Origin: an uncultured Spartobacteria bacterium
GTDB lineage: Bacteria > Verrucomicrobiota > Verrucomicrobiia > Chthoniobacterales > UBA6821
NCBI GenBank assembly: GCA_903847935.1
Contig: CAINEX010000003.1
Location: 13,250 to 77,249, forward strand
Direction: 5' to 3'
DNA length: 64,000 nt
Shown here: positions 6,500 through 25,816 of the stretch, piece after piece
Layout: each line of letters starts with the position of its first letter
How positions within the stretch are numbered: position 1 is the first letter of the stretch
Made by a program: the position numbers and the translations under genes
Notes under the pieces: generated by a model
The model's database searches: none
What the model saw: the letters and a program-made list of their open reading frames with translations, nothing else
Told to the model about the DNA's origin: nothing

Positions 6500-7249
6500 A
6501 TGAAAAATCCACTCCTTCTCACACTGGCCGGCTTTCTCTTGATCGGCTCTCTCCGGGCAGAAAAGCCCTCTCCCATCGACCCCAACGCCCTCTCGATGCT
6601 CAAGCGGATGAGCGCCACGCTCTCCGCTGCGAAAGCCTTCTCCGTGGAAACTCACGGCATCATGGAGGTCCCCTCCGTCTCGGGCCAGTTCATTACCCTC
6701 TTCCCCTCCGGACGACTCTCGCTCCAGCGCCCCGACAAGGTGCGTGCTGAACTCGGGGGAGATGCGCCTCCTTTTGATTTTTATTATGACGGGACCTCGG
6801 TCTCCGCGATCGCACCGCACACGAAGGTTTTCTCAACGCTGAAGGCCCCATCGACCATCGACGAGATGCTCTCCGGTCTGCAGCAGGAAACCGGGATCCG
6901 CTTTCCCTCCGCCCCGATCCTCAACAGCGATCCGTACGGCGTCCTATCGCGCGGACTCCTGAGCGCCGTTGTCGTCGGCCCCTGCAAGGTAAACGGCGTC
7001 GAGTGCGATCATCTGGCCTTCCGATCCCCCGGTGTGAATTGGGAAATCTGGATTGATGCAGGCCAACGCGCCGTGCCCCGCCGTCTGGCTGTCACTTTCA
7101 CCGATAGGCCCAACTTCCCTCGCTCGATCGTGGAGTTTTCCTCCTGGAATCTTCATCCATGGCTTCATCAGTCCTTGTTCATGTTTCACCCTCCCACCGG
7201 TTTCAAGGAAATCCCCTTCAAGACCGTGCTGAAAGATTCCGACCGCTGA
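6500..7249 (+). CDS. Secreted LolA-like/DUF2092-type periplasmic protein
   Basis: ATG at 6500 gives the signal peptide MKNPLLLTLAGFLLIGSLRA. The body (LKRMSATLSAAKAFSVE ... FDFYYDGTSVS ... TIDEML) matches my memory of the DUF2092 family. Upstream ORF extension to 6359 is unlikely. Confidence 0.6.
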   Translation: MKNPLLLTLAGFLLIGSLRAEKPSPIDPNALSMLKRMSATLSAAKAFSVETHGIMEVPSVSGQFITLFPSGRLSLQRPDKVRAELGGDAPPFDFYYDGTSVSAIAPHTKVFSTLKAPSTIDEMLSGLQQETGIRFPSAPILNSDPYGVLSRGLLSAVVVGPCKVNGVECDHLAFRSPGVNWEIWIDAGQRAVPRRLAVTFTDRPNFPRSIVEFSSWNLHPWLHQSLFMFHPPTGFKEIPFKTVLKDSDR

Positions 7250-7272
7250 TCAATCCAATACCCATTTTCTTC

Positions 7273-7701
7273 ATGAACTCCTTACGATCCTTGTCCGTCA
7301 CCAGCCTAATTGTGGCTGCAGCTCTCTTCCTGACGGCCTGTAACGGCTCCGCCTACTACGGGCCGACCGTCTACACGCCCCCACCGGTGGTTCCTTTCTA
7401 CGGTTGGGGTGGTGCCGGCTATTACGGCGGGGCCTACTACGGCACCAGTGCCGCTTACTACAACAGCTCCTACTACCGCGGCGTCAACGGCGCCGCCTAT
7501 CACACCCCTTATGCTTCCGGCGGGTATTACCACACCCCATATTCCAGCAGTGCCTACTACCACAATGCCAACGGCAGTTATGCCTACTCGCATGATGGTT
7601 ATGGCAGTGCCTATGGGGCACGAGGGGGGTCGGCTTCATGGGGTGGCGGATCGGGAAGCGCTACCGGGTACAGGGGGCGTTCCGTCTCCTGGCACCGCTA
7701 A
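7273..7701 (+). CDS. Tyr/Gly-rich low-complexity lipoprotein
   Basis: ATG at 7273 gives MNSLRSLSVTSLIVAAALFLTAC, a lipobox L-T-A-C. The mature part is dominated by YYG/AYY/GGS repeats. Confidence 0.55.
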   Translation: MNSLRSLSVTSLIVAAALFLTACNGSAYYGPTVYTPPPVVPFYGWGGAGYYGGAYYGTSAAYYNSSYYRGVNGAAYHTPYASGGYYHTPYSSSAYYHNANGSYAYSHDGYGSAYGARGGSASWGGGSGSATGYRGRSVSWHR

Positions 7702-7744
7702 TCGCGTTGACCGAAGAACCAGCGATTCCCTCTGATTGCGGGGA

Positions 7745-9514
7745 TTAGCTGCGGCTCCTCCGCTCCCGGTCCCAATCACGACCCTTGTTTCCAACGCGGC
7801 TCCACCAAGCTGGGGCCGGCATTTTTGGTGAGGATGATTTGTCACTCCCAGCGCTTTGCTGCTCTTTTGGGTTAGTCGCGGCCTTCCTGTCGCCCTTGCC
7901 ACCTCTCGCAAGGGTTACCTGCTTTCCGGGAATCACCTTGCGGTACATCTCAAGTCGGCAGTTGAATCCCCCCAAATCGACGGTCTTCTGAAACTCCAAC
8001 TTCAGCGAAGGATCGGAGGGGCCGGTGCGAAGAGGATTCACGAAGACGAGCCGGCCTCCCACCTTCAAGGCGCAGGACGCGGCGGCATAGAGGTCGGAGA
8101 AAAGCCCCTGCATGTCCTTGATCCGGACGCGTCGTCCGAGGGGGGGATTGGTGATCATGAGCGAGATACTTCCGGGGGAAATCCCGGCTTTCGTTGCCGC
8201 ATCCCGGAAATCACATTCCACCATTTCGGCGCGCGCTCCCCCCATCCTTGGGTTATCACGGCGGGCCGCATCGAAGTTTTCCCGTGCCACGGCGATGGCC
8301 TTGGCATCCAAATCCGTTCCGTAAGCCATGACCACACCTCCTCGCAGGGAGCGCTCCACAAGTTCCAGGCCCGATCCGCAGAAGGGATCCCAGACGATCT
8401 CATCCGGCTTCACTCCCGCCAGACGCACCATGCACGCAGCAAGCGGCGGATGTGAGGCGGCCGCAATGTCATCCTGACGGTAACCGAGTCGCGGATCGGG
8501 GTAGAGTCGCGGCCTTAGCTCGACCATGGATTCCCCGCGGCCACTCGGAGTACTTGATGAAGTTTCGGGGATCACGTCGACCGACCAGAGGGATTGCCGC
8601 GAATCATTCAGGATGGAAGGAGAGAGTGCATAGGCACGATCCACCACTTGGCGGACGGCTCCGCGTTGATGACCGCGGCCGGCGAATTCCAGCCGGTAGC
8701 GGGGCTCTCCCGCCGTGGCGGCGGTCATGATCTCGCGGGCACGATTCGATGCGATGCATCGCGCCAGGGGCTCCACCCAACTTGCGTTGGAGCCGGAGCC
8801 AACGGCGACCATTCCCAGTGGGAAAGCCACCGTCGCAAAACAGCGAAGCCGATAGAGCGTCGCGAGGGAAAAGTCTCCGAGCGGCTTCAGCGTCACACAG
8901 CCGGGCTGGGTCCTCTCGATGATCCATTCCGCAGGAGAGAGGATCTCTCTGGCCTCCTCCCGCACGAAGTCCTCGAGGCCCTTGCGACAGCGAAGGAGGA
9001 CACGCATGTCGGGATCCCCCGAGAGTAGGGCCTCCATGCGGAGGGATCCGGGATTTTCCCTCCTGGAAACAGCAGCTTTCACTTTCAGTCCGGTGATCCC
9101 TGGCACGATGGCCCCTCCTGATTCCTCGATGACGTTCAGCGTCGCCTTCCCACCGACCTTCTCCAGCGCGCGGCCCACGTGGCGCTTTTCCCGATCTTCT
9201 CCGCTTTTTCCCAGCAGATTCAGCATCTCCTGTTCCCCGGATTCACCAATACCGATCTTGGGAAGTGCGGCTAATGCGTAGCGACGCACCTTTTCCTGCG
9301 GGTCCTGCAGCAACGAAATCAACCACTGGCGCACCTGCGCCTTCTCCTCCTCCGTACCGAACCGGGAAAAGATCATCCCGACCGCGCGGATCACGGCCAC
9401 GTTCTCCATGCGCTCCCGCTGGGAGGCCCTGTTGAATCGGCTCACCTCGTTGCTCCAGAGCGCCTCCTTGGAGAGATCGCGCAGACGCTTGTACAGATCC
9501 TGATCGGACTTCAT
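7745..9514 (-). CDS. HEAT-repeat + THUMP-like + class I SAM-dependent (NPPxG-type) RNA/DNA methyltransferase fusion
   Basis: Catalytic motif LMITNPPLGRR and SAM-binding DPFCGSGLELVE. The N-terminus has HEAT-like repeats (VRRYALAALPKIG ... VGRALEKVGG) and the C-terminus is a basic tail. ATG at 9514 (MKSDQDLYKRL) is preferred over the ORF start at 9622. Confidence 0.7.
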   Translation of the reverse strand: MKSDQDLYKRLRDLSKEALWSNEVSRFNRASQRERMENVAVIRAVGMIFSRFGTEEEKAQVRQWLISLLQDPQEKVRRYALAALPKIGIGESGEQEMLNLLGKSGEDREKRHVGRALEKVGGKATLNVIEESGGAIVPGITGLKVKAAVSRRENPGSLRMEALLSGDPDMRVLLRCRKGLEDFVREEAREILSPAEWIIERTQPGCVTLKPLGDFSLATLYRLRCFATVAFPLGMVAVGSGSNASWVEPLARCIASNRAREIMTAATAGEPRYRLEFAGRGHQRGAVRQVVDRAYALSPSILNDSRQSLWSVDVIPETSSSTPSGRGESMVELRPRLYPDPRLGYRQDDIAAASHPPLAACMVRLAGVKPDEIVWDPFCGSGLELVERSLRGGVVMAYGTDLDAKAIAVARENFDAARRDNPRMGGARAEMVECDFRDAATKAGISPGSISLMITNPPLGRRVRIKDMQGLFSDLYAAASCALKVGGRLVFVNPLRTGPSDPSLKLEFQKTVDLGGFNCRLEMYRKVIPGKQVTLARGGKGDRKAATNPKEQQSAGSDKSSSPKMPAPAWWSRVGNKGRDWDRERRSRS

Positions 9515-9620
9515 GCAGTGATCATGACAGCTTGGTATCGGGAACCGAGATTTAATCGGTGGGCCGTACCGTTCTCCTTGGACTTCGGGGAAAACTCTTC
9601 TAAAGCATAGAGGCATTGCC

Positions 9621-10040
9621 ATGACACGACTCCTCTCTCATTCACTTCCTCGCCTTGCCCTCCTTCTGCTCGTGATGGTCTTGTCGGCCTGCGCCACCCA
9701 CCTTCAGAAGAAGGAGAGCTACCTGCGCGAGGCCGGGTTTCATGCCGTCACACCTGTTACCCCGGTCCAGATTGCCCGGGTCAAGGCGCTCCCTCAGGGT
9801 CACATCACCCGCGTGAAGCGCCAAGGGAAAGTCCTCTTCGTCTTGGCCGATGCCAAGCAGAATTTTGTCCTCATCGGCGGCGATCCTCAGTATCAGCGCT
9901 ACCAACAGATCCTCTATAAGAAGGAAGTCATCCCCGGCATCGGGGAAGATGAGGAGATGAAGGCCTTCGACGAGGCGGGCGGACCATTGGAAGGCTTGTA
10001 CGGTCCGATGGGCATGTTCGGTGGCCCGATGTTCTACTAG
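9621..10040 (+). CDS. Lipoprotein of unknown function (paralogue A)
   Basis: Lipobox LSAC. Conserved core CATHLQKKESYLREAGF ... LPQGHI ... GGDPQYQRYQQILYKK is shared with the next gene. Confidence 0.6.
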   Translation: MTRLLSHSLPRLALLLLVMVLSACATHLQKKESYLREAGFHAVTPVTPVQIARVKALPQGHITRVKRQGKVLFVLADAKQNFVLIGGDPQYQRYQQILYKKEVIPGIGEDEEMKAFDEAGGPLEGLYGPMGMFGGPMFY

Positions 10041-10092
10041 CCTGCTCTTCCTGATCGACTCAACAAAGGGTTGTGATATCTCTCCACTTGCT

Positions 10093-10482
10093 ATGAATCG
10101 CCTTCTCTCCCTGCTAGCCCTCCTTCTCGCTGTGTTGCTCACTGGATGCGCCACCCACTTGCAGCAGAAGGAGAACTTTCTGCGTGAAGCCGGATTCCGC
10201 ACCGTGAAGCCTTCGACTCCGGAACAGATCGCCCACTTCCAATCCCTCAGGCAAGGACACATCAGCCACGAGACCCGCAATGGGCAGACCCTCCACATGT
10301 TGGCCGACCCGGGTCAGCATATTCTCCTTGTAGGAGGAGATGCTGAATACGAACGGTACCAGGAGATCCTCTACGCAAAGGTCGTCGATCCCGATACCGC
10401 CAGCGCCAAGTTCACCCAGGGACTGGAGAATGCCTGGAACAATGGTTGGGGGGCGGTCCTCGGCTCCCTCGTCCCACAATAA
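10093..10482 (+). CDS. Lipoprotein of unknown function (paralogue B)
   Basis: ATG at 10093 gives MNRLLSLLALLLAVLLTGC. Core CATHLQQKENFLREAGF ... LRQGHI ... GGDAEYERYQEILYAK is paralogous to 9621..10040. Confidence 0.6.
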   Translation: MNRLLSLLALLLAVLLTGCATHLQQKENFLREAGFRTVKPSTPEQIAHFQSLRQGHISHETRNGQTLHMLADPGQHILLVGGDAEYERYQEILYAKVVDPDTASAKFTQGLENAWNNGWGAVLGSLVPQ

Positions 10483-10492
10483 TTTTGCCTCG

Positions 10493-11062
10493 GTGAGCAA
10501 GCCCCGCATCTTGGCCTTCGGTGGAAGTCTCCGCCGTGATTCGTTGAACCAGAAGCTCGCGGCCATTGCCGCCGAGGGGGCGCGTGAGGCGGGTGCGGAG
10601 GTGACGCTAATCGAGCTGCGTGATTTCCCGATGCCTCTCTTTGACCAGGATCTCGAGGCGGAGATCGGAAAGCCTGAGCACGCCAAGCGCCTCAAGGATC
10701 TCTTCCTCTCGCATCAGGGACTCCTGATCGCCTCGCCGGAATACAACAGCTCCTACTCCGCAGCTCTGAAGAATGCCATCGACTGGGTCTCGCGCGGTGA
10801 CAACCCCGACGAGCCCCCGATCTCAGCGCTGGCAGGGAAGCGTGCCGTGATCATGGCAACCTCACCAGGTGGACTCGGCGGTCTGCGTGGACTGGTTCCC
10901 CTGCGGATGCTCCTCGGCAATCTCGGCATCACCCTGCTCCCCGACCAGATCGCCATCCCCTCCGCCTTTCAGGCCTTTGGCCCGGACGGCCACCTCGTCG
11001 ATCCTAAGCAGGAGGCTAAAGTCAAAGCCCTGGGCGCAGCGTTGGCGAAGAATCTGAGGTAG
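10493..11062 (+). CDS. NAD(P)H-dependent FMN reductase family oxidoreductase
   Basis: In-frame GTG at 10493 gives VSKPRILAFGGSLRRDSLNQKL, the typical flavodoxin-like FMN_red N-terminus, and SPEYNSSYSAALKNAIDW follows. The upstream part of ORF 10340.. overlaps the preceding gene. Confidence 0.7.
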   Translation: MSKPRILAFGGSLRRDSLNQKLAAIAAEGAREAGAEVTLIELRDFPMPLFDQDLEAEIGKPEHAKRLKDLFLSHQGLLIASPEYNSSYSAALKNAIDWVSRGDNPDEPPISALAGKRAVIMATSPGGLGGLRGLVPLRMLLGNLGITLLPDQIAIPSAFQAFGPDGHLVDPKQEAKVKALGAALAKNLR

Positions 11063-11166
11063 GCTAAGGATTTAGGCGCGAGCCTTCCAATCTCGCTCTG
11101 CGGCCGCAATTCAGAAGGTTTTTGATTTGGATCTCACGAAGGCGGGAAGTTAAATATTAGTTTCCG

Positions 11167-12150
11167 ATGCCATCCTCTCGCCAATCTGAAGAACGCAGAG
11201 ATGCATTTCGGAGGATTGTGCCTTTCTTTGGGAAGATTATTCCTTCCATCAAACTTAGATCTCCCGGAGATGATCTGCCCGGCGTTAAAACGATTCATCC
11301 GCTTATTGAGGGGATTTATAAACCCGCAGATTCTCTTTATGCCTTTAGCATCGCCTCGATGTTGAAGAGTCCCTATGCGGATCAAACATTTTTCAATCCC
11401 GATGGGTCATGGTGGTTGTGGTATAGCCCAAAGGATGGGGGATTAGATATAGCGGCTAATGCTTCGCTTATGCGTTGCATGCAAGAGCGGGAACCAGTCT
11501 TAGTGCTTAAACAGATTGGTGATAAAACCAGTAAAGGCGGAGCTCGTCATCGAGTACTAGGCCTTGGATTCATTGATGAATTTAGTGCATCTCAAAATGC
11601 ATTTCAGATACGGGGCCTGAACGATGCACAACTTCAATCTTATCTGCATGTTGGCCTTGATACGGAAGACGTCCTTGAAGCTGCTTTACGACTACAGTCG
11701 CTCGAAGCATGGTCCCCTTTTATTCAAGAAGAGCGTGCTATCTATCATGTATCCCGAATCAAGCGCGACGCAGCATTTAGGCAAGTAGTACTAGATAACT
11801 ACGATCACACCTGTGCTGTAACGGGGCAGAAGTTTGTTTATGAGCACCGAGTTTTTGAGGCCGATGCAGCTCATATTATTGCTAAAGGCAAACTTGGTAG
11901 CGACGATCCTCGTAATGGAATAGCTCTCTCTAAGAGCGTTCATTGGGCTTTTGATCAAGGTGTATTCACTATATCGGATCAGTTTGAAGTTCTAATTCAC
12001 CCGAAAGCAAAACAGGCCACCTCACAAAATTTTCCTCTGCTAGATGCGCATGGCCGACAAATTGTTCTGCCTTCAGATACTGCATACCATCCTCACTCCG
12101 ATGCTCTTGAGTGGCACAGGAAAGAAATGTTTGGTCGCTTTGCGGCCTAA
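11167..12150 (+). CDS. SRA/YDG-like domain + HNH (HNH_2-type) nuclease; candidate modification-dependent restriction endonuclease
   Basis: C-terminal DHTCAVTG...AAHIIAKG...NGIALSKSVHWAFDQGVFTI matches the HNH_2 pattern. N-terminal GIYKP..YAFSIAS..YADQ..WYSPKDGG..EPVLVLKQ..VLGLGFI matches the SRA domain pattern. The gene is markedly lower in GC than its flanks. Confidence 0.7.
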   Translation: MPSSRQSEERRDAFRRIVPFFGKIIPSIKLRSPGDDLPGVKTIHPLIEGIYKPADSLYAFSIASMLKSPYADQTFFNPDGSWWLWYSPKDGGLDIAANASLMRCMQEREPVLVLKQIGDKTSKGGARHRVLGLGFIDEFSASQNAFQIRGLNDAQLQSYLHVGLDTEDVLEAALRLQSLEAWSPFIQEERAIYHVSRIKRDAAFRQVVLDNYDHTCAVTGQKFVYEHRVFEADAAHIIAKGKLGSDDPRNGIALSKSVHWAFDQGVFTISDQFEVLIHPKAKQATSQNFPLLDAHGRQIVLPSDTAYHPHSDALEWHRKEMFGRFAA

Positions 12151-12256
12151 TTATTGTGGCGCCGCAATCTTATATGCGGGGCTAGGCGTGCGAGTGAAGC
12201 CGTAGTAGAGCTACGGCGATCGAGCAACAACAACGCCCCGCGCCAAGAGTGCAAGA

Positions 12257-12278
12257 GGACAGCCTAATTAGGCTGTCC
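12257..12278. repeat. Perfect 22-nt palindrome overlapping the secA stop codon
   Basis: GGACAGCCTAATTAGGCTGTCC forms a 9-bp stem with an AATT loop. No U-tract follows on either strand. Confidence 0.8.
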
Positions 12279-15261
12279 GCCCACAGCAGGATTTGAATTT
12301 TTTGCCGGAGCCACACGGACAAGGATCATTCCGCCCCGCCTTCACCACCTGCGCCCTCTGCACCGGCTTCTGCTGCATGGCTTGCTCGAAGACAGACTGC
12401 GGCGCGGCGGCCTGCGTGGCGTCGGCTTCCCCTTCGTTCGCGCCAAGGTGTCCCTCGGAACCGAGCAGATCCCTCTGCAGGAGGTGATGCGGCATGGAGG
12501 CGAGCAACTGCTCGAAAGCCTGGAGGTTGGTGGTGGAGCGGAAGAGGTTGTTCAGGACCTCGTTCTTGATGCTCTCCATGAGCTCCACGAACATGGCGTA
12601 GGCCTCGGTCTTGTACTCGGTGAGCGGGTCCTTCTGACCGTAGGCGCGGAGGTAGACAGCCTCGCGGAGTCCGTCCATGGCGTAAAGGTGCTCCTGCCAG
12701 AGGCGGTCGACGGCGTTCAGGATGACATACTTTTCCAATCCCGATCGGGCGGCAGCATCCTCGATTGCGGCCTTGCGGTCGTAGGCCTCGACGAGCGTCG
12801 TGGCCAGCCACGCACCGTTCTCTTCGATATCGCGGCTCTCGAAGGAGCACTTCTCGCGGGTGAGGCCGACAGGGAAGGTGGAGTTCACCCACTGGAGAAG
12901 TCCGGCGACATCAGGCTCCGAGTCACTGCTCTCCGTCGTCAGGAAAGCCGCCACCTTCTTCGGCACGACTTCGTTGATCACCTCGTGGATGAGGACGCGA
13001 GGGTTCTCGGCATCCATGACCTCGTTGCGGTAGCCGTAGATGACTTCGCGCTGTTGATTCATCACGTCGTCGAACTCGAGGGTCCGGCGGCGCATGAGGT
13101 AGTTCCTCTGCTCGACGCGCTTCTGCGCCGTCTCGACGGACCGATTCAGCCAGGGGTGCTCAAGCTCCTCGCCCTCCTTCATGCCGAAGGTCTCCATGAT
13201 CTTGGTCATGCGGTCGGCGGCACCGAAGTTCCTCATGAGGTCATCCTCAAAGCTGATGTAGAAGCGGGAACGTCCCGGATCGCCCTGACGGGCACAACGT
13301 CCGCGCAGCTGGCGGTCGATGCGGCGTGACTCGTGCCGCTCTGTGCCGAGCACGAAGAGTCCCCCTAACTCGGAGACTCCCTCGCCCAGCTTGATGTCGG
13401 TACCACGGCCGGCCATGTTCGTGGAGATCGTGACAGCCCCCTTCATGCCGGCGCGCGAGATGATCTCGGCCTCCTGCATGTGGAACTTCGCGTTCAGCAC
13501 GGTGTGGGGAATCTTGTCCCGTTTGAGCATGCGGCTGAGCACCTCGGAGGACTCGACGCTCGCCGTACCGACAAGGATCGGCTGGCCGCGCATGTGGGAG
13601 GCCTTGATCTCGTCGATGGCGGCCGCCATCTTCTCGCGGCGGGTCTTGTAGATCCGGTCGTTCTCGTCGAGGCGGGCGACGGGCCGGTTGGTCGGGATGA
13701 CGTTGACGGCCAGCGCGTAGATGTCGTGGAACTCATTGGCCTCGGTCTCCGCGGTTCCGGTCATGCCTGCCAGCTTCTCGTAGAGGCGGAAGTAATTCTG
13801 GATGGTGATCGTGGCCATCGTCTGGGTCTCGCGGTCAATCTGGACTCCCTCCTTGGCCTCGACGGCCTGGTGAAGTCCGTCGCTCCAGCGGCGTCCGGCC
13901 ATCTTGCGGCCCGTGAAGGTATCGACGATGACAACTTTGTTCTCCTCGACGACGTACTCGACATCCTTCTCGTAGAGGCAGTAGGCCTTGAGCAACTGGG
14001 CGATGTTGTGCATCCGCTCGGCAGAGTGATCGCAGTGGCGCTGGCGTTCGGCCTTCATGGCGGCTTTGCCATTGGCATCGAGATCGGGATCGTTCTCGAT
14101 GTCGGCGAACTCCGTCAGCAGATCAGGGAGGACGAAGGCATTCGGGTCGTCGGGGTTGAGGAAGGTGCGTCCCATCTCGGTGAGGTCAGCCTCCTGCTGT
14201 TTCTCCTCAATGGTGAAGTAGAGCTCCTCCTTGAGCGCGACGAGGGCATCCTTGGAAGTATCCTGATAGAAGGAGAGCTCGGCCTTGTCGGTGAGGCGGC
14301 GAAGCTCCGGATCCTCCATGGCACGCAGCAGTCCCTTGTTGCGAGGCTGTCCCAGCTTCACCTTGAAGAGGGCCATGCCGGCGGCCTCCTTCTCCCCCTT
14401 GGCGAGGAGCTCCTTGGCGTCGACCACGAGCTTGTTGATGAGCGCGGTCTGCTTGCGGACGAGCTGTTCGACAAGCGGCTTGAACCGATCGTACTGGTGA
14501 GTCGAGACGGTGGCCGGACCACTGATGATCAGGGGCGTGCGGGCCTCGTCGATCAGGATGGAGTCGACCTCGTCGACGATGGCGAAGTAGTGGCCGCGCT
14601 GGACCTGCTGGTCGCGGCTGGTCGCCATGCCATTGTCCCGGAGGTAGTCGAAGCCGAACTCGCTGTTCGTCCCGTAGGCAATGTCGCACTCGTACTGGGC
14701 GCGGCGCTCTTCGGGAGACTGGTCGTGCTGGATGATGCCGGTCGAGAGTCCGAGGAAGGCGTAAAGCTGTCCCATGCACTCGGCGTCACGGCGGGCGAGG
14801 TAGTCGTTCACCGTCACGACGTGGACGCCGCGCCCGGTGAGGGCATTCAGGTAGACGGGCAGGGTCGCCACGAGGGTCTTACCCTCACCGGTCGCCATCT
14901 CGGCGATGCGCCCCTTGTGGAGCACCATGCCCCCGACAAGCTGGACGTCGAAGTGGACCATGTTCCAGGTGTATTCGTGGTCGCAGACCATGAACTGCAT
15001 CCCGACCATGCGGCGGGCGGCATTCTTCACCACGGCAAAGGCCTCGGGGAGGATCTCGTTGAGGCGTTTCTGCAGGAGGTCCGGATCCTGAATCTGGGAA
15101 AGCTCGGCCTTCCAGGCGGCGGTCTTTTGGCTAAGCGCCTCGGCGGGAAGTGACTGCAGCGACTTCTCGATGTCGTTGATCTTGGTGACCAGCGGAAGCA
15201 TGCGGCGCACTTCGCGCTGGTTCTTTGATCCGACGATTTTTTTTAAGATCCAGTTGAACAT
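12268..15261 (-). CDS. secA: Preprotein translocase ATPase SecA
   Basis: 997 aa. MFNWILKKIVGSKNQREVRR N-terminus, MATGEGKTLVATLP Walker A, and the C-terminal zinc finger CPCGSGKKFKSCCG. Confidence 0.97.
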   Translation of the reverse strand: MFNWILKKIVGSKNQREVRRMLPLVTKINDIEKSLQSLPAEALSQKTAAWKAELSQIQDPDLLQKRLNEILPEAFAVVKNAARRMVGMQFMVCDHEYTWNMVHFDVQLVGGMVLHKGRIAEMATGEGKTLVATLPVYLNALTGRGVHVVTVNDYLARRDAECMGQLYAFLGLSTGIIQHDQSPEERRAQYECDIAYGTNSEFGFDYLRDNGMATSRDQQVQRGHYFAIVDEVDSILIDEARTPLIISGPATVSTHQYDRFKPLVEQLVRKQTALINKLVVDAKELLAKGEKEAAGMALFKVKLGQPRNKGLLRAMEDPELRRLTDKAELSFYQDTSKDALVALKEELYFTIEEKQQEADLTEMGRTFLNPDDPNAFVLPDLLTEFADIENDPDLDANGKAAMKAERQRHCDHSAERMHNIAQLLKAYCLYEKDVEYVVEENKVVIVDTFTGRKMAGRRWSDGLHQAVEAKEGVQIDRETQTMATITIQNYFRLYEKLAGMTGTAETEANEFHDIYALAVNVIPTNRPVARLDENDRIYKTRREKMAAAIDEIKASHMRGQPILVGTASVESSEVLSRMLKRDKIPHTVLNAKFHMQEAEIISRAGMKGAVTISTNMAGRGTDIKLGEGVSELGGLFVLGTERHESRRIDRQLRGRCARQGDPGRSRFYISFEDDLMRNFGAADRMTKIMETFGMKEGEELEHPWLNRSVETAQKRVEQRNYLMRRRTLEFDDVMNQQREVIYGYRNEVMDAENPRVLIHEVINEVVPKKVAAFLTTESSDSEPDVAGLLQWVNSTFPVGLTREKCSFESRDIEENGAWLATTLVEAYDRKAAIEDAAARSGLEKYVILNAVDRLWQEHLYAMDGLREAVYLRAYGQKDPLTEYKTEAYAMFVELMESIKNEVLNNLFRSTTNLQAFEQLLASMPHHLLQRDLLGSEGHLGANEGEADATQAAAPQSVFEQAMQQKPVQRAQVVKAGRNDPCPCGSGKKFKSCCGRTA

Positions 15262-19387: not shown

Positions 19388-19741
19388 ATGCAGATTTCGC
19401 TCTCCCTCTTCGGGGATATCCCCGTATTCCACCTTTCCGGAAGACTGGATGTGACCACTACTCCCTCGCTCGAAGAGCGCATCAAGCCAGTGGTAGAAAA
19501 CACAGGTCAAACGATGATCTTCAACTGCCAGGAACTCACCTATATCAGCAGTGCCGGTCTACGTCTTTTCCTCACAGCTCAGCGTCAGTGTGCCGCCTCG
19601 GGTGGAAGCGTTGCATTCGCCGCGTTGAGTCAGCCGGTGGGGGAGCTGTTTGCACTGGCGGGGCTCGATGGACTTTTCACCATCGAATCCTCCGTGGAGG
19701 GTGCGGCCTCGCGTCTTGGTGGTTCGGGTAAGATCTCTTGA
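19388..19741 (+). CDS. STAS-domain anti-sigma-factor antagonist (SpoIIAA-like)
   Basis: 117 aa. The YISSAGLRLFL motif carries the conserved phosphorylatable Ser context. The stop codon directly abuts the convergent mnmG stop. Confidence 0.75.
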   Translation: MQISLSLFGDIPVFHLSGRLDVTTTPSLEERIKPVVENTGQTMIFNCQELTYISSAGLRLFLTAQRQCAASGGSVAFAALSQPVGELFALAGLDGLFTIESSVEGAASRLGGSGKIS

Positions 19742-21643
19742 TTAAGAACATCTGTCGCCTGAGGCATCCGACTCAACAGCGTTGGGAGAACTGATCTTTT
19801 TCATCCAGATCGAGAGCACGGAGATGTCTGCAGGCGTAATGCCGCTGATCCGCGAGGCCTGACCGAGTGTGCCTGGGGAGTAATCGCGGAACTTCTGCCT
19901 TGCCTCCAACCTCATGCTGGGAATCGAATCATAATCTATCCCGGCGGGAATAAGACTCTCCTCCTGCTGGCGATGGCGTTCAATTTGGTCCTGCTCTCGT
20001 CGTAGGTATCCCTCGTACTTGAGGTCTGTCTCCACAAGTTCCCAGATCTCGGGTTTGTATCGCCCGTACAGTTCGGGTGGGAGTTTGCGGGGTGCATTCT
20101 CGGATCGTTTGAGCCACTGCCCCAAGGAAATTCCTTCATGGCTTGTACCCGCGGTTTCTGCAAACAGTGCTTGGATGGAGGCTTGCTTCTTCAAAAAGGT
20201 GTGTTTCCGATATTCACATGCTATTCCTAGTTCTAAAGACTTCTCTGTCAGTCGGATATCACAATTATCTTGGCGCAGTCGCAACCTGTATTCCGCGCGA
20301 CTGGTGAACATTCGATACGGCTCTGGCGTCCCCCTCGTGATGAGATCATCAATCATGACGCCGATATAGGCCTGCTCTCGTCCAAGAACAAAGGGGTCTC
20401 GTTGCTGTACCTTAAGGGCGGCATTGATGCCTGCCATTAGCCCCTGAGCCGCCGCCTCCTCATAGCCTGAAGTTCCGTTGATTTGACCTGCAAAATAAAG
20501 GCCTTCGATCTTCTTTGTTTCAAGTGTTGAGTGAAGTTGATGGGGGGGGCAATAGTCGTACTCAACAGCATATCCCGGTCGGAGAATCTCCGCCTTCTCC
20601 AGTGATGGGATGGATCGAATGAAATCATACTGCACTTCATAGGGCAAACTTGTTGAGACTCCATTGACGTATATTTCTCCCGTGTGCCTTCCTTCCGGCT
20701 CCAGAAAGATCTGATGTCGCGATTTTTCCGCAAACTTAACCACCTTATCCTCAATCGAAGGACAATACCTGGGTCCCACTCCATCAATCACTCCAGCGTA
20801 GAGCGGTGAGAGGTGGAGATTTTGTCGGATGATCGTGTGCGTCTCTTCGGTCGTGTAGGTAATCCAGCAAGGGATTTGTTCCACATGGAACAATCGATCA
20901 CGGAAGTGATTGAGCGTATGAAGATCGTGGGGACCTTTTTCTATGGATTCAGGAATGTGAGAAAAAAGTGGTTCCGGTGTATCGCCGTCTTGGCGCTCAC
21001 ATCGGGTGAAATCAATCGATTTCGCCAATAGGCGGCAAGGGGTCCCCGTCTTGAAACGCCCAACCTCAAATCCTAACTCCTTAAGGTGATCACTCAGGGT
21101 CGATATCGATTCTCCCATCCTACCTCCTGTCTGTGTCTTCATTCCCACATGGAGAAGACCACGCATGAAGGTTCCTGTGGTGATGACAACGGAAGATGCT
21201 AAAAACCGGAGTCCTAGGTTGGTCTCTACCCCAGTGATCTTATCTCCATCAACCAAGAGATTGGTGATATTTGCTTGTTTCAGTGAAAGGTTAGGGAGGT
21301 TCTCCAACAGAGCTTTGAGACGAAATTGATAGGCTTTCTTATCGCACTGGGCTCGCGGTGCTCGAACGCTTGGACCTTTGGAAGCATTCAACATGCGGAA
21401 CTGAATTCCTGTCGCATCCGTATTTATACCCATCAATCCACCCAGAGCATCTATTTCGCGAACCATGTGACCTTTGGCTAATCCTCCAATGGCCGGGTTA
21501 CAGGACATCTGACCGATCGTGTCAGCATTTTGGGTGAGAAGAAGTGTTTTGCAACCGAGACGTGCCGCCGCATGTGCAGCTTCGATACCAGCATGACCCG
21601 CACCGATAATTAAAACATCAAAGTGATCAGGATAGGTGTACAT
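19742..21643 (-). CDS. mnmG: tRNA uridine 5-carboxymethylaminomethyl modification enzyme MnmG (GidA)
   Basis: [19 protein letters not shown] motif and a full-length GidA-like sequence. ATG at 21643 ([10 protein letters not shown]) is preferred to GTG at 21658. Confidence 0.95.
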
Positions 21644-21736
21644 CGAGGTATGTTCCACATGGAACTTTTATATAAGTTTTTATTAATGAATACATTATAA
21701 TTCTAAATTCCGTTATATCCCGACGACGCGAACTGT

Positions 21737-21770
21737 GTGTGGTTTTCTTGTGAAGAAGTGTGGTTTTCTT
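21737..21770 (+). repeat. 13-bp direct repeat GTGTGGTTTTCTT x2 with 21-bp period
   Basis: Exact copies at 21737-21749 and 21758-21770. The core TGTGGTTTT matches the DnaA-box complement at 6 of 9 positions. Confidence 0.7.
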
Positions 21771-21952
21771 TAAAAACTTGTTTCATGGAACAAAAGGTTG
21801 GGATCAACTTCTTATGGTAGGGAGAAGGATTCACACCAAATCGTCTTTTACAACTCTCTTCTTTTAAGGATCTTGACCATTCGAGAAAATGTTTACTCAC
21901 ACTCTTATGATTAAGAAGATCTTGTCCTAAAAAATAAGAAATCCATAAAAGG

Positions 21953-21961
21953 TGTGGATAA
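21953..21961. promoter_or_regulatory. Perfect consensus DnaA box (TGTGGATAA = TTATCCACA on the other strand)
   Basis: Exact 9-mer match read directly from the sequence (ggTGTGGATAAgt). Confidence 0.5.
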
Positions 21962-22076
21962 GTTTTTCTTAGGCAGGCCCCGATCGTTCTGCCTCTTCCT
22001 TGAGCATATCTTAAAGGAGAGGAGTTGCTGAAGATTTCTTTCCGTGGGCGGTGGGATTCATTAGATATTGATCTTT

Positions 22077-23024
22077 ATGGCAACGTTATCGTTAAAACGG
22101 GAAAGATCTGGAACAAAAACCTTTTTTCTCTGGATGTTTGCGTTGGCGCTACTTGTCTCGATTGGAATCCATTATCTCTTCTTTGAAACAACACAATCGT
22201 GGGTGATCAATGCGTTCTCTCCGGAAACGTATGATCAGATCGTTCCAAGGACTTTCCGCATGAAGCGTGTGGAAATCGACCCAAAAGTTTTGGAGGAACA
22301 GCGACCGGTGGAAAAAAAGTTCGCGACGCAGCCAGTCCTCCTGGATCAGGAAAGACCTTTGGATAAAGCACAGGAACAAGCAAAAAGAGAATCAACACTC
22401 ATCAAACCAAAGGAATTAGATCAGGAACTTTTGCCTCGGGAAAAGGCGGATATGGAGAAAACTGTAGCGAGTGGAGGGAAAGTACTGGCAGGAATCCAGA
22501 TGCCAGAGGATGTGGGGAAGAACCATGAGTTGGAAACAATCCTCGACCCATCACCTGAGCCAAGTGATATGGCGCTCCCAACAAGTCCAAAAGGAAAAGG
22601 GGAAAGTGTCGGCGAAAAGTTCAGTTCCTTGGATGACCTCCTTGCCGGAAAAGAAAGCGTTACTGCAGCAACAGCGCCGATCTTGATGCCGACCGATCTC
22701 CTCTTCGGTTATGACGCAGATACACTCAAGCCCGAAGCGGCCCAGTCACTGGCCAAACTGGGCGCCCTCATTCAAAGGAATGCACAGGCAAGATTTAGAA
22801 TCGAGGGACACACAGACTCCTTTGGGAGTGATGAGTACAACAATGCACTCAGTCTGCGGCGGGCAGAGGCAGTCCGGAGTTGGCTTCAACTAAACATGGG
22901 TATCAACCCCAACTTGATGACAATAGCCGGCTTCGGAAAAAGCAGGCTACTGGTTTCTGCAACAGGAACAGTTGAAGAACAGCAGATCAATCGGAGGGTT
23001 GAGATTGTGATTATTACCCAATAA
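22077..23024 (+). CDS. OmpA-family peptidoglycan-binding protein with N-terminal TM anchor
   Basis: The C-terminal OmpA_C block is FGYDADTLKPEAAQSLAKLGALIQ...IEGHTDSFGSDEYNNALSLRRAEAV...NRRVEIVI. There is one N-terminal TM helix. ATG at 22077. Confidence 0.8.
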   Translation: MATLSLKRERSGTKTFFLWMFALALLVSIGIHYLFFETTQSWVINAFSPETYDQIVPRTFRMKRVEIDPKVLEEQRPVEKKFATQPVLLDQERPLDKAQEQAKRESTLIKPKELDQELLPREKADMEKTVASGGKVLAGIQMPEDVGKNHELETILDPSPEPSDMALPTSPKGKGESVGEKFSSLDDLLAGKESVTAATAPILMPTDLLFGYDADTLKPEAAQSLAKLGALIQRNAQARFRIEGHTDSFGSDEYNNALSLRRAEAVRSWLQLNMGINPNLMTIAGFGKSRLLVSATGTVEEQQINRRVEIVIITQ

Positions 23025-23038
23025 GGAGAGAATGCTTT

Positions 23039-25816
23039 ATGGAGGGAATTGTTCCGTTATCCGAGCATCGTGCCCAAATTCAGCGCGAAGTCGCCAAGAA
23101 GCTACATGCCGTGCTTGATGGTCAGAAGGAACTGCCTATTCAACAGCTTCTCACATTCAGAAAACGGGAGGAACACCGACTCAAGCTCTGGCATCGTGCA
23201 GGAGGGGGTGGAAGGGAGATCGCGGGGAGAAGATCCGAATTGGTGGATATTCTGCTTCGCGAAATATTCCGATTTGCGACCCGAAAGGAGCTTTTGGAAT
23301 CCGGAAATAAAGAAATGCCCGGTCTCGTCGTAAGTGCGTTCGGAGGATATGGAAGAAAAGAGCTCAACCCCTTCAGTGATGTCGATATCACATTCCTTCA
23401 TGAAGGGGAAAAAACTACCCCGTCCATGGAGAAGGTGGTCACCACCTGTCTGATGGCTCTTTGGGATCTGGGATTCAAGGTCGGTCATGCCACGCGTTCC
23501 ATCCAGGGTGCCATCGACCAGGCAAACATCGACATGATGGCCAAGACAGCCATGTTGGAAAGCCGTTGGCTCGCGGGAGAAAAAAAAATCTTTGAGGATT
23601 TCCGGGAGAAATTCGAACGTGCTTGTGTCCAGGGACAGGAAAAAAGCTATATCCTCTTTCGGTTGGAAAACATGAAAGAGCTTCGTGCCAAATATGGTGC
23701 AAGCGTCTTCATGCAGGAGCCGAACATCAAGTCGGGTTGCGGAGGGCTCAGGGATTATCAAAACCTCCTTTGGACAGGAATGTTCCATTCCGGTGCCTAT
23801 AGTCTGGCGCGGCTGGTGGAGGAACACATCCTGCATGGAAAGGAGAAGAGACTTCTCGATGAAGCGCATGACTTTCTTCTCCGTGTAAGAACGGAAATGC
23901 ATTACCAGACGGGGCGTGCTGCGGACCAGTTGACTCTCCAGCTCCAAGGCAAGGTGGCCACGGCACTGGAATACCCCGAAAAAAACATCCTCCGAAGATG
24001 CGAGGCGTTCATGCGTGATTATTACCGGCACACACGGGAAGTTCACCTCATCACGACGCTCGCCTTGGGACACATCCGCGAACAACGAGGGATGAGGACG
24101 ACTTTGCTCGGGAAGTTGCTAGGACGGCGGGAAAAGACGGTGGATGAAATGGAAATCAGGGAGGGAGAGCTTTTTCCCAAAGCCAGGGATATCTTCAATA
24201 AGGATCCTTCCCGAATGATGAGGGCTTTCCAGTTGGCCCAAAAGAGACAATTGAAATTTTCCGCCGAGCTCGGAGATCTGGTCAAGCGACGTCTCAAGTT
24301 GGTGGACCGGACGTTTCAGTATAATAAGGAAAACCGGACTGTTTTCCTGGATATCCTTTCCCGCAAGGGGGAGGTTGGCCGGATCCTCAGACTCATGCAC
24401 GATCTGGGCTTCCTAGGAAAATATTTGCCGGAATTCGCCCCGTTGACCTGCCTTGTACAGCACGAATTTTTTCACCGATACACGGCTGATGAGCACACGC
24501 TCCGATGCATCGATAAAATCGATGAGTTGCTCTTCACCAAGAATCCCAAACTTCAGCGATATGGAGAAATCTTCAGGAGAATCGAGGACCCGGCGGTCCT
24601 TTACCTTGCCATGCTTCTCCATGACACGGGCAAGGCTGCAAACACCCGGCACCACGAGGAGGAAAGCGCCCTCGCCGCGCTGAAGGTTTCACGAAGGCTT
24701 CAGCTCGCCACGAAAAGGCTCAAGATGCTGGTCACGTTGGTGGATGCTCACGGGGAGATGAGCGGCGTGGCACGTTCCCGGAATATCGAGGACCCGGCGA
24801 CCGTGGAGGAGTTCGCACAGATCATCAAGGATCCCATCATTCTGGACGCCCTCATGGTGATCACGTTGGCCGACGGCATGGGTACCAGCGACGAGGGATG
24901 GAGTGACTGGAAAGAGCAGTTGGTCTGGAAGCTCTATCATGAGACAAGAAAATGCCTTCGCGACAGCGAGGGATTCCTACAGGAACGCAACAAGCGCCGC
25001 GAGGATCTTCGAGCGCAGGTCACAGATAATCTTACTTCCGGATACGGGGAGGAGGAGGAGGCTCACTTGAGTGGAATGCCCGAGCGCTATCTACAAGCAA
25101 AGGCTGCCAAGGAAATAGCGGGACACATTCGTCTCTTCCGCAGGTTTTTCGAACAGGGGTTGCAGCAGGATGGTCCGAACCTCGATCCCATCATCGAGTG
25201 GATTGATCACCCGGAAGCCGGATACGCGGAGGTTCTTGTGTGCGGCTGGGATAGAGAGCGATTGCTAGAGCGCCTGTCCGCCGCCTTTCTTGGAGTTGGC
25301 ATCAACGTGCTCGGTGCCGATGTCTTCACACGGAGAGATCAATTGATCCTGGATATCTTCAAAGTCTCCAACCACCGGAATGATCCCCTTCCCGCCGAAC
25401 GCGACCGCAAGCAGTTCGAGCAACGGCTGAAAGAGTTACTCATGGCGCCGGGGAGCCGACAGGTTCCCGAACCAACGAAGCCGGTTCGTCTCGAGAGGAA
25501 TGTGATTGCGAACCCTGAGGACGAGGAGTTGCCAGTCTGGGTAAAACTCAATAACACGGCGCATCCATCGTGTACGATTCTTGAAGTTCAGGCGCCTGAC
25601 CGAATGGGGCTTCTTTACCATCTGCTACGCGCCATCTCGCATGGGGGTATCTCCATCGAGGCAGCCCGTATTGCAACCGAGCAGAAAGCTGCGTTGGATG
25701 TTTTTTATCTCAGGACCAAAGAGGGTGAAAAGATCCAGGAGAAAAATTTGCAGATGAGACTGGAGAGACGCCTTCGTCTAGCCTCCGCGCGCGCGAACAT
25801 CGAGGGAAAACGATGA
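23039..25816 (+). CDS. glnD: [Protein-PII] uridylyltransferase/uridylyl-removing enzyme
   Basis: 925 aa. Nucleotidyltransferase motif GGYGRKELNPFSDVDI, an HD domain (LLHDTGK), and two C-terminal ACT-like regions. Confidence 0.85.
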   Translation: MEGIVPLSEHRAQIQREVAKKLHAVLDGQKELPIQQLLTFRKREEHRLKLWHRAGGGGREIAGRRSELVDILLREIFRFATRKELLESGNKEMPGLVVSAFGGYGRKELNPFSDVDITFLHEGEKTTPSMEKVVTTCLMALWDLGFKVGHATRSIQGAIDQANIDMMAKTAMLESRWLAGEKKIFEDFREKFERACVQGQEKSYILFRLENMKELRAKYGASVFMQEPNIKSGCGGLRDYQNLLWTGMFHSGAYSLARLVEEHILHGKEKRLLDEAHDFLLRVRTEMHYQTGRAADQLTLQLQGKVATALEYPEKNILRRCEAFMRDYYRHTREVHLITTLALGHIREQRGMRTTLLGKLLGRREKTVDEMEIREGELFPKARDIFNKDPSRMMRAFQLAQKRQLKFSAELGDLVKRRLKLVDRTFQYNKENRTVFLDILSRKGEVGRILRLMHDLGFLGKYLPEFAPLTCLVQHEFFHRYTADEHTLRCIDKIDELLFTKNPKLQRYGEIFRRIEDPAVLYLAMLLHDTGKAANTRHHEEESALAALKVSRRLQLATKRLKMLVTLVDAHGEMSGVARSRNIEDPATVEEFAQIIKDPIILDALMVITLADGMGTSDEGWSDWKEQLVWKLYHETRKCLRDSEGFLQERNKRREDLRAQVTDNLTSGYGEEEEAHLSGMPERYLQAKAAKEIAGHIRLFRRFFEQGLQQDGPNLDPIIEWIDHPEAGYAEVLVCGWDRERLLERLSAAFLGVGINVLGADVFTRRDQLILDIFKVSNHRNDPLPAERDRKQFEQRLKELLMAPGSRQVPEPTKPVRLERNVIANPEDEELPVWVKLNNTAHPSCTILEVQAPDRMGLLYHLLRAISHGGISIEAARIATEQKAALDVFYLRTKEGEKIQEKNLQMRLERRLRLASARANIEGKR

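Follow-up and report, generated by a model that had tools for sequence, protein, structure and literature searches.

The stretch of DNA analysed here (the window) comprises 64,000 nucleotides from the genome of an uncultured Spartobacteria bacterium (assembly GCA_903847935.1, contig CAINEX010000003.1, positions 13,250 to 77,249). Between an FMN-reductase gene and the 3' end of secA, it carries a gene for a protein of 327 residues, in which an N-terminal SRA-like domain precedes a C-terminal HNH_2 nuclease domain. We consider this protein to be probably a Type IV (modification-dependent) restriction endonuclease encoded by a solitary gene and similar in plan to TagI and ScoA3IV, and a probable reader of 5-substituted cytosine. 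The open reading frame and all of the motifs quoted from it in an earlier reading of the letters alone (hereafter, the sequence-only reading) were found where that reading had placed them (Table 1), and the Pfam domains of both flanking genes agree with the position it had claimed for the gene.

The nuclease half carries the HNH_2 domain that had been proposed: hmmscan matches PF13391 at residues 216-269 (E 2.4e-11). Across 41 homologs, residues H236, N250, H259, and D263 are invariant, and the profile built from these homologs matches TagI (6ghs), a structurally characterised SRA-HNH enzyme, in the PDB; phmmer of the full protein against PDB sequences gave no match. Hidden Markov model profile and profile-profile alignments both place the four residues on TagI H229, N245, H254, and D258, whose catalytic roles are described in PMC6212794. 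The TagI zinc ligands C210, C213, C250, and D253 align to C216, T219, S255, and V258. The C-x-x-C ... C-x-x-D of TagI is thus represented by C-x-x-T ... S-x-x-V, a CxxC ... CxxC/D/H zinc-binding pattern is absent, and because of these substitutions the window protein would, by alignment, belong to a subfamily in which the structural zinc site is degenerate.

From the helical linker onward (residue ~161/183), the protein is 32% identical to two other HNH_2 proteins, HHPV4I and a protein encoded at the same genomic position in a relative (contig L103). The PADLOC HNH models and the NCBIfam model NF045808 (PT-DNA_restrict) match residues ~180-323 only; the C-terminal extension is spanned by NF045808 positions 157-283, and the HHPV4I alignment reaches residue 319. 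NF045808 is the best NCBIfam hit (E 9.4e-27), which would fit a phosphorothioate-DNA-dependent enzyme of the SprMcrA/ScoMcrA type. We regard this explanation as extremely improbable and effectively refuted at the domain level. The score is 93.9 bits against a cut-off of 180, and the match covers only model positions 157-283 of 284, the HNH part. The sulfur-binding half of the model is unmatched, and no sulfur-binding-domain structure occurs among the Foldseek matches. The window protein is therefore related to SprMcrA and ScoMcrA through the HNH_2 domain and its C-terminal extension, and lacks their sulfur-binding reader.

The sequence-only reading had recognised the motif order of an SRA domain in the N-terminal half. 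Fold, profile, and profile-profile tests support an SRA-like domain, but the hmmscan against PF02182 (SAD_SRA) that had been suggested as a check finds nothing. First, an exhaustive phmmer search with residues 1-195 recovered at least 216 cluster representatives (50% identity) that share a core at residues ~47-140. In a 40-sequence alignment of this core, K52, P53, Y70, D72, N98, P110, and G132 are invariant, and the consensus reads KGIYKP...YALS...SPYxD...DGxW..Y...TNxxLxxC...VPVGV...YxVLGLxxV. The profile of this core, restricted to the N-domain, was compared with 177,635 PDB sequences, and the top three places go to the SRA domains of SUVH4, SUVH5, and SUVH6. These matches are in register, pairing YxD with YEDD, N..L with GNLAL, PVGV with PVRV, and Y..GL with Y.YDGLY. 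The close-homolog profile limited to residues 1-195 found nothing relevant among the PDB sequences.

Second, the predicted fold was compared with known structures. The first AlphaFold2 model, made from the 41 close homologs, was poor (predicted local distance difference test score, pLDDT, 62; HNH unmodelled), and it was replaced by a model of the N-domain from a more diverse alignment (pLDDT 94.9; predicted template-modelling score 0.91). In a Foldseek search of the PDB with this model, every one of the 19 best matches is a modified-cytosine reader of the SRA or SRA-like type. The list is headed by the SRA domains of SUVH4/5/6/9 (E 3e-5 to 3.5e-3, 21-25% identity across some 145 residues) and continues with the Type IV enzymes LpnPI, AbaSI, SauUSI, and PvuRts1I (E 0.02-0.13). 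Among viral predicted structures, the only significant match is a 'ScoMcrA-like SRA domain' protein. Third, TagI and 119 relatives were retrieved, all 120 with PF02182 and PF13391, and 30 of them were aligned as a TagI-family profile. When full-length families are compared, hhalign gives 97.6% (E 3.8e-12, 238 columns), and the alignment is colinear over both domains, from query 19-276 to TagI 5-271. We conclude from the predicted model and these alignments that the N-domain has an SRA fold and is remotely homologous to the SRA domain of SRA-HNH enzymes, forming a sequence family of its own.

Several results weigh against our reading of the protein as a Type IV enzyme with an SRA-like reader. 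PF02182 has no hit in the window protein at E <= 10 and matches one of the 41 close homologs weakly (E 0.13); among 69 distant relatives, none matches at E <= 0.01. The profile matches to SUVH4/5/6 are sub-significant (E 0.07-0.41), the structural match to the 145-residue SUVH5 SRA domain is only moderate (TM 0.50-0.55; root-mean-square deviation 4.4-5 Å), and the N-domain alone reaches 40.6% (E 2.9e-4) in hhalign against the TagI family. The canonical Y-x-D-D of the base pocket reads Y-x-D-Q here, with the non-conserved Q73 at the position of the base-reading Asp58 of TagI; the following hairpin is four residues longer than that of TagI, and the second aromatic wall is ambiguous between W82 and Y86. 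Lastly, on the related HNH_2 chassis of HHPV4I, the SRA variant can be dispensed with and is apparently inactive, and another domain of that enzyme reads N6-methyladenine (m6A) (PMC10101028). Because PF02182 gives no hit, the zinc-site residues are not retained, and the pocket alignment is non-decisive, the protein should not be placed among the SRA-HNH enzymes defined by Pfam and is instead a diverged variant of that kind.

The comparison with characterised systems places the protein closest to the TagI/ScoA3IV-type SRA-HNH enzymes (ScoA3IV is also named Sco5333; TbiR51I, MsiJI, and VcaCI belong to the same type). These enzymes have the same order of reader, helical linker, and C-terminal HNH_2 domain, and TagI has 311 residues versus 327 in the window protein. 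The motifs GI, Y-x-D, Y-[ST]-x-x-GG, N-x-x-L, PV-x-V, and Y-x-x-x-GL occur in the same order in both families, as does the H/N/H/D catalytic set, and in both the gene is solitary, with no methyltransferase nearby. Unlike TagI, the window protein has a reader that PF02182 misses, the altered pocket and hairpin described above, and extra N-terminal helices (residues 3-31). Its host belongs to the Verrucomicrobiota, whereas ScoA3IV homologs have been reported mostly in GC-rich Actino- and Proteobacteria. The best structural and sequence-profile matches, the SRA domains of SUVH4/KRYPTONITE, SUVH5, SUVH6, and SUVH9 (and UHRF1), are base-flipping readers of 5-methylcytosine (5mC); in those proteins they are joined to SET or RING domains and serve chromatin regulation, in contrast to the nuclease fusion here. 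The second-tier structural matches, MspJI/LpnPI/AspBHI, PvuRts1I/AbaSI, and SauUSI, are Type IV enzymes that likewise couple an SRA-like reader to a nuclease, but they differ in the nuclease itself (PD-(D/E)XK, or PLD with helicase), in domain order, and in oligomeric state.

In TagI, the walls of the base pocket are Tyr55 and Tyr67, and Asp58 is the carboxylate that reads the cytosine edge (PMC6212794). The hhalign alignment places Y70 on Y55, D72 on D57, Q73 on D58, D79 on D60, Y86-S87 on Y67-T68, and G91-G92 on G71-G72. The second wall differs by method, being Y86 in hhalign against TagI and W82 in HMMER, where it lies opposite the second Tyr of SUVH4. Across the reader superfamily, Y70 and D72 are invariant, and W82 and Y86 are nearly so. 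The pocket is plausible, though it departs from the canonical form, and its residues do not reveal which base it recognises.

This raises the alternative that the architecture and defence role are the same and the mark is other than 5mC or 5-hydroxymethylcytosine (5hmC), for example N4-methylcytosine, N6-methyladenine (6mA), a glucosylated or otherwise hypermodified pyrimidine, or a 5-hydroxymethyluracil derivative. We consider this alternative unlikely. All structural neighbours of the N-domain read 5-substituted cytosine, and the invariant carboxylate D72 stands beside the first aromatic wall, the place of the cytosine selector in SRA domains (PMC6212794). The Y-x-D pocket with its four-residue hairpin insertion and a variable residue at the TagI Asp58 position speaks for another mark, as does the fact that the reader is a separate family beyond the recognition of Pfam SAD_SRA. 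ScoA3V, a 6mA-stimulated HNH enzyme of the PUA superfamily, and HHPV4I, an HNH_2 enzyme with an SRA variant that need not read cytosine modifications, are precedents. In HHPV4I, m6A is read by the DpnI_C winged helix, which the window protein does not have. It is similarly doubtful, if anything a little more so, that the reader founds a distinct family whose altered pocket (Y-x-D, longer hairpin, Trp/Tyr wall) reads a mark other than 5mC or 5hmC; if true, this would be a new Type IV specificity class and a potential reagent for mapping that modification.

HHPV4I combines an SRA variant, a DpnI-like winged helix, and HNH_2, and is Gm6ATC-dependent. It resembles the window protein in having an N-terminal SRA variant and is itself modification-dependent, and its HNH is the closest experimentally characterised module (hhalign 99.3%, residues 183-319, 37% identity). 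The winged helix (PF17726) is found at HHPV4I residues 170-221 (E 2.2e-16) and has no hit in the window protein, so the m6A specificity of HHPV4I does not transfer; an extension of the BLAST match into residues 106-160 is unsupported by hhalign. A ScoA3V-type PUA domain was also rejected, as the structural neighbours of the N-domain are SRA, not PUA/EVE (no direct sequence comparison with ScoA3V was made).

The example of HHPV4I is a warning that SRA variants may be silent; the N-domain of the window protein is, however, strongly conserved. It is quite improbable, in our view, that this domain is vestigial or a modification-blind DNA binder and the protein a modification-independent nuclease, whether an orphan Type II-like or nicking enzyme, a toxin, or a selfish homing-type HNH, with a partner or immunity gene elsewhere in the genome. 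Such a nuclease would be in keeping with the HHPV4I SRA variant, which can be deleted without loss of activity, and with the L103 protein, in which the same nuclease chassis serves a methyltransferase-linked, presumably modification-blocked, enzyme. The ratio of nonsynonymous to synonymous divergence (dN/dS, omega) argues otherwise: against the 87%-identical orthologs L086 and L089, omega in the N-domain is 0.03-0.05, a constraint as strong as that on the HNH domain. Omega by segment is 0.02-0.14 throughout (0.03-0.14 in the N-domain), and dN/dS of the whole gene against orthologs is 0.05-0.06, indicating purifying selection. In addition, the putative pocket residues do not vary, or hardly do, in a superfamily that counts at least 216 clusters, and for a homing element the flanking repeats and the intron or intein context are missing.

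A nuclease of this kind, if unprotected, would also kill its host unless a methyltransferase or immunity gene were linked to it, and in eight contexts there is no such gene. The absence of an adjacent methyltransferase, pointed out in the sequence-only reading, thus extends to the window neighbourhood and seven other family contexts. Within the 64-kb window, the only part of the genome that was inspected, there is no open reading frame with DNA methyltransferase motifs; this limited coverage is a point on the side of a modification-independent enzyme. Distant homologs are solitary as well; methyltransferase genes are absent from their surroundings, where TIR_2, DUF4365, RVT_1, or ParE genes are often found. 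They fit the published rule that open reading frames for PUA-superfamily reader endonucleases are rarely near methyltransferase open reading frames (PMC6765204). A 625-residue protein encoded nearby (7745-9622, minus strand) has an unusual combination of HEAT repeats and a UPF0020 methyltransferase domain. It was rejected as a partner: the domain is RMKL-like, and the protein is conserved, at 64% identity, in relatives without the HNH gene.

For the Type IV enzyme that we favour, the following mechanism may be proposed. The N-terminal SRA-like beta-barrel would bind DNA and flip the modified base out of the helix. This base, for which a 5-substituted cytosine (5mC or 5hmC, for example) is the most probable candidate, would be held in a pocket lined by Y70, D72, and W82/Y86. 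The HNH_2 domain, probably dimeric by analogy with TagI, would then nick or cut near the modified site, with H236 as the putative general base and H259/D263 (with N250) as candidate holders of a divalent metal. As the host appears to have no matching methyltransferase, only incoming modified DNA would be attacked. Such DNA might come from phages whose cytosines are modified, or from sibling strains equipped with m5C restriction-modification systems.

Both halves of the protein occur in other combinations. The reader domain is N-terminal to an McrB-like AAA_5 ATPase in one protein (P0196, 690 aa), stands together with EVE and HNH_2 in another (P0238, 486 aa), which gives two different readers and one nuclease, and is C-terminal to an MTaX1 domain in a third (P0262). 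Other partners are classical HNH and the PD-(D/E)XK-type Vsr/DUF559/MTES_1575 domains. McrB-like AAA_5, EVE with HNH_2, and MTaX1 are components (effectors or readers) of modification-dependent systems, and the company they keep with this reader speaks for the Type IV assignment. An apparent family member of 1800 aa with nine 'stretches' (P0163) was discarded as a spurious match to a repetitive secreted protein. The HNH_2 module with its C-terminal extension is a chassis that is paired with other readers, namely sulfur-binding domains in NF045808 and the DpnI-type winged helix in HHPV4I. On contig L103, whose secA is 95% identical, a C5 cytosine methyltransferase gene is followed by a gene for a 324-aa HNH_2 protein (together 6705-8698). 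This protein matches the window protein in the linker, HNH, and C-terminal module (residues 161-317, 32% identical), and its N-domain is unannotated and unrelated to the reader. The two genes apparently form a restriction-modification pair that uses the same nuclease chassis. On the contig of a further family member (P0017, JGI 3300047160), two HNH_2 genes of the family (324 and 338 aa) stand in tandem at 7001-9017 and adjoin AAA, MazG-like, thymidylate-kinase, and T5orf172 genes, which suggests that the reader-nuclease has been duplicated in phage-like or defence-island surroundings.

The genomic position of the gene was surveyed on metagenome contigs anchored on the FMN reductase, with secA also used as an anchor. 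Across relatives, the FMN-reductase/secA interval measures 1.25-4.5 kb and holds alternative cargos (Table 1); it is a hypervariable defence hotspot, and the window gene is one of many cargos. At least 21 metagenome contigs encode the identical protein between the same neighbours, and the 87%-identical orthologs are also convergent with secA, whose C-terminal region is 91% (L086) or ~80% (L089, L090) identical. Similarity of secA puts the host in a freshwater Chthoniobacterales ('Spartobacteria') lineage of Verrucomicrobiota. The species representatives nearest by secA are 92% identical over its last 499 residues, and in none of 80 species-representative genomes does the gene lie within 7 kb of secA. 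In one locus (L001), the secA-proximal space is taken up by a homolog of Schlafen-type helicases together with a PIN/antitoxin pair and a ParE-like pair. The secA of L135 is 99% identical to that of the window, which puts it in the same population, yet its cargo is different. A Schlafen-group-3-helicase gene (DUF2075-type, 660-690 aa) recurs in the slot, at 9718-11721 in L001, 602-2590 in L130, and 485-2548 in L135; the L135 copy is also low in guanine-cytosine (GC) content (0.45).

Horizontal acquisition, suggested earlier from composition, is supported by this polymorphism and sharpened by divergence at synonymous sites (dS). In L100 and L115, dS of the gene is 0.10-0.13 versus 0.53-0.68 for the flanking genes, about five-fold lower, which indicates recent exchange between lineages. 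On L097 and L081-L085, the HNH, FMN-reductase, and lipoprotein genes are identical or nearly so to those of the window (dS <= 0.007), and the same contigs differ in the last 500 secA codons (12268-13767; dS 0.12, 98.8% amino-acid identity). The 3' half of secA is thus mosaic, which implies that a recombination junction lies within secA or directly at it, where the hotspot ends. At this edge, homology to relatives without the gene stops at 12267-12272, the secA stop, and a perfect 22-nt palindrome (12257-12278, an inverted repeat) overlaps the secA stop codon; terminator-like hairpins lie at 12133-12147 (plus strand) and 12245-12231 (minus strand). A scan of the upstream spacer for sigma-70-like promoters found none. 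Because no convincing flanking direct or inverted repeats, att-like sites, or tRNA-type integration signatures were found around the gene, it looks like cargo that is exchanged by flanking homologous recombination and not like a self-mobile element.

The low GC content noted in the sequence-only reading holds, at 0.44-0.49 over 11050-12250 versus 0.57-0.66 in the flanks. The gene itself has a GC content of 0.457 (z = -3.3 relative to every other 984-nt segment in the 64 kb), and GC at third codon positions is 0.366 versus 0.854 in secA and 0.758 in the FMN-reductase gene. It is not the sole low-GC stretch of the window, as 19.7-23.7 kb is even lower. The 87%-identical orthologs, at the same secA-proximal position, also have a low GC content (0.47-0.48), so the composition is not private to this genome, and distant family members (55-60% identical) have a GC content near that of their hosts. 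Since the orthologs share the value, low GC is a persistent feature of this clade's copy of the gene; some relatives lack the gene altogether.

Table 1. Features of the window around the reader-nuclease gene, and cargos found in the FMN-reductase/secA slot
Feature	Positions	Strand	Basis or loci
SRA-like/HNH_2 protein gene, complete, stop codon included	11167..12150	+	Open reading frame, 327 aa
N-terminal SRA-like reader domain, residues 1-160	11167..11646	+	Predicted model, Foldseek, profiles
Conserved reader core, residues ~47-140	11305-11586	+
Putative flipped-base pocket segment	11374..11424	+	Alignment only
Pocket codons	Y70 11374, D72 11380, D79 11401, W82 11410, Y86 11422	+
Helical linker to pre-HNH helix, residues 161-195	11647..11751	+	Predicted secondary structure; omega 0.016
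HNH_2 beta-beta-alpha-Me nuclease domain, residues 196-275	11752..11991	+	PF13391
Catalytic residues (by alignment)	H236 11872, N250 11914, H259 11941, D263 11953	+	Alignment to TagI
C-terminal extension of HNH_2 chassis, residues 276-327	11992..12147	+	NF045808, PADLOC HNH models, HHPV4I alignment
NADPH-dependent FMN reductase, left hotspot anchor	10493..11062	+	PF03358, E 4.6e-40
Upstream intergenic spacer, left boundary of variable cargo	11063..11166	.	Homology to orthologous loci starts at 11069-11188, by lineage
Downstream spacer common to gene and convergent secA	12151..12278	.
secA, right hotspot anchor, convergent with gene	12268..15261	-	SecA Pfam domains
Slot cargo: window gene			L097/L098; L100 at 98%; L115 at 100% over 201 aa
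Slot cargo: C5 DNA_methylase and Eco29kI-type restriction endonuclease			L121/L122
Slot cargo: C5 methylase and 281-aa protein			L102/L111/L112
Slot cargo: C5 methylase and NotI-like protein			L105
Slot cargo: C5 methylase and another HNH_2 protein			L103
Slot cargo: Mrr_cat			L134
Slot cargo: SLFN-g3 helicase proteins			L130 and L135
Slot cargo: ParE, PIN, and HNH_2			L118
Slot cargo: Fic and an insertion sequence			L116

Elsewhere in the window, two tandem paralogous small genes (9621-10040 and 10021-10482) lie upstream of the FMN reductase. They belong to no Pfam family, and their N-termini are lipoprotein-like (…LSAC and …LTGC). Close relatives (L086, L089, L100-L122) differ in how many such genes they have and in how these are ordered with respect to the FMN reductase. 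The second, larger low-GC region spans 19650-23700, with its minimum at ~21600-22200, and contains mnmG/gidA (19742-21658, minus strand) and an OmpA-family gene (22068-23024, plus strand), at a GC content of ~0.49-0.51. In the intergenic stretch between these two genes, the GC content falls to 0.34-0.40, and the window's only perfect DnaA box, TTATCCACA, is found there at 21953-21961. DnaA-box-like 9-mers (<=1 mismatch) are enriched across the window (15 versus 6.7 expected). This region is possibly oriC-proximal.

If the assignment as a divergent SRA-HNH enzyme is true, a sizeable reader family that Pfam does not annotate can be labelled SRA-like, and many genes now called 'HNH endonuclease' or 'hypothetical' could be recognised as coding for restriction enzymes that depend on modification. 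This enzyme and those related to it would be candidates for new modification-dependent nucleases, a class already used for epigenetic mapping. The locus would also offer a clean case from nature of antagonistic systems that alternate at a single hotspot, in a freshwater Verrucomicrobial population that is both abundant and uncultured; some strains there carry m5C-writing restriction-modification systems and others a probable m5C-type-reading nuclease on the same chassis. The idea that Type IV enzymes police DNA and phages from methylating sibling strains would become directly testable by metagenomic methylomes. A known theme is extended and current understanding is not overturned; the reader family is unannotated, and the hotspot would offer an unusually clear contrast between writers and a probable reader of DNA modification.

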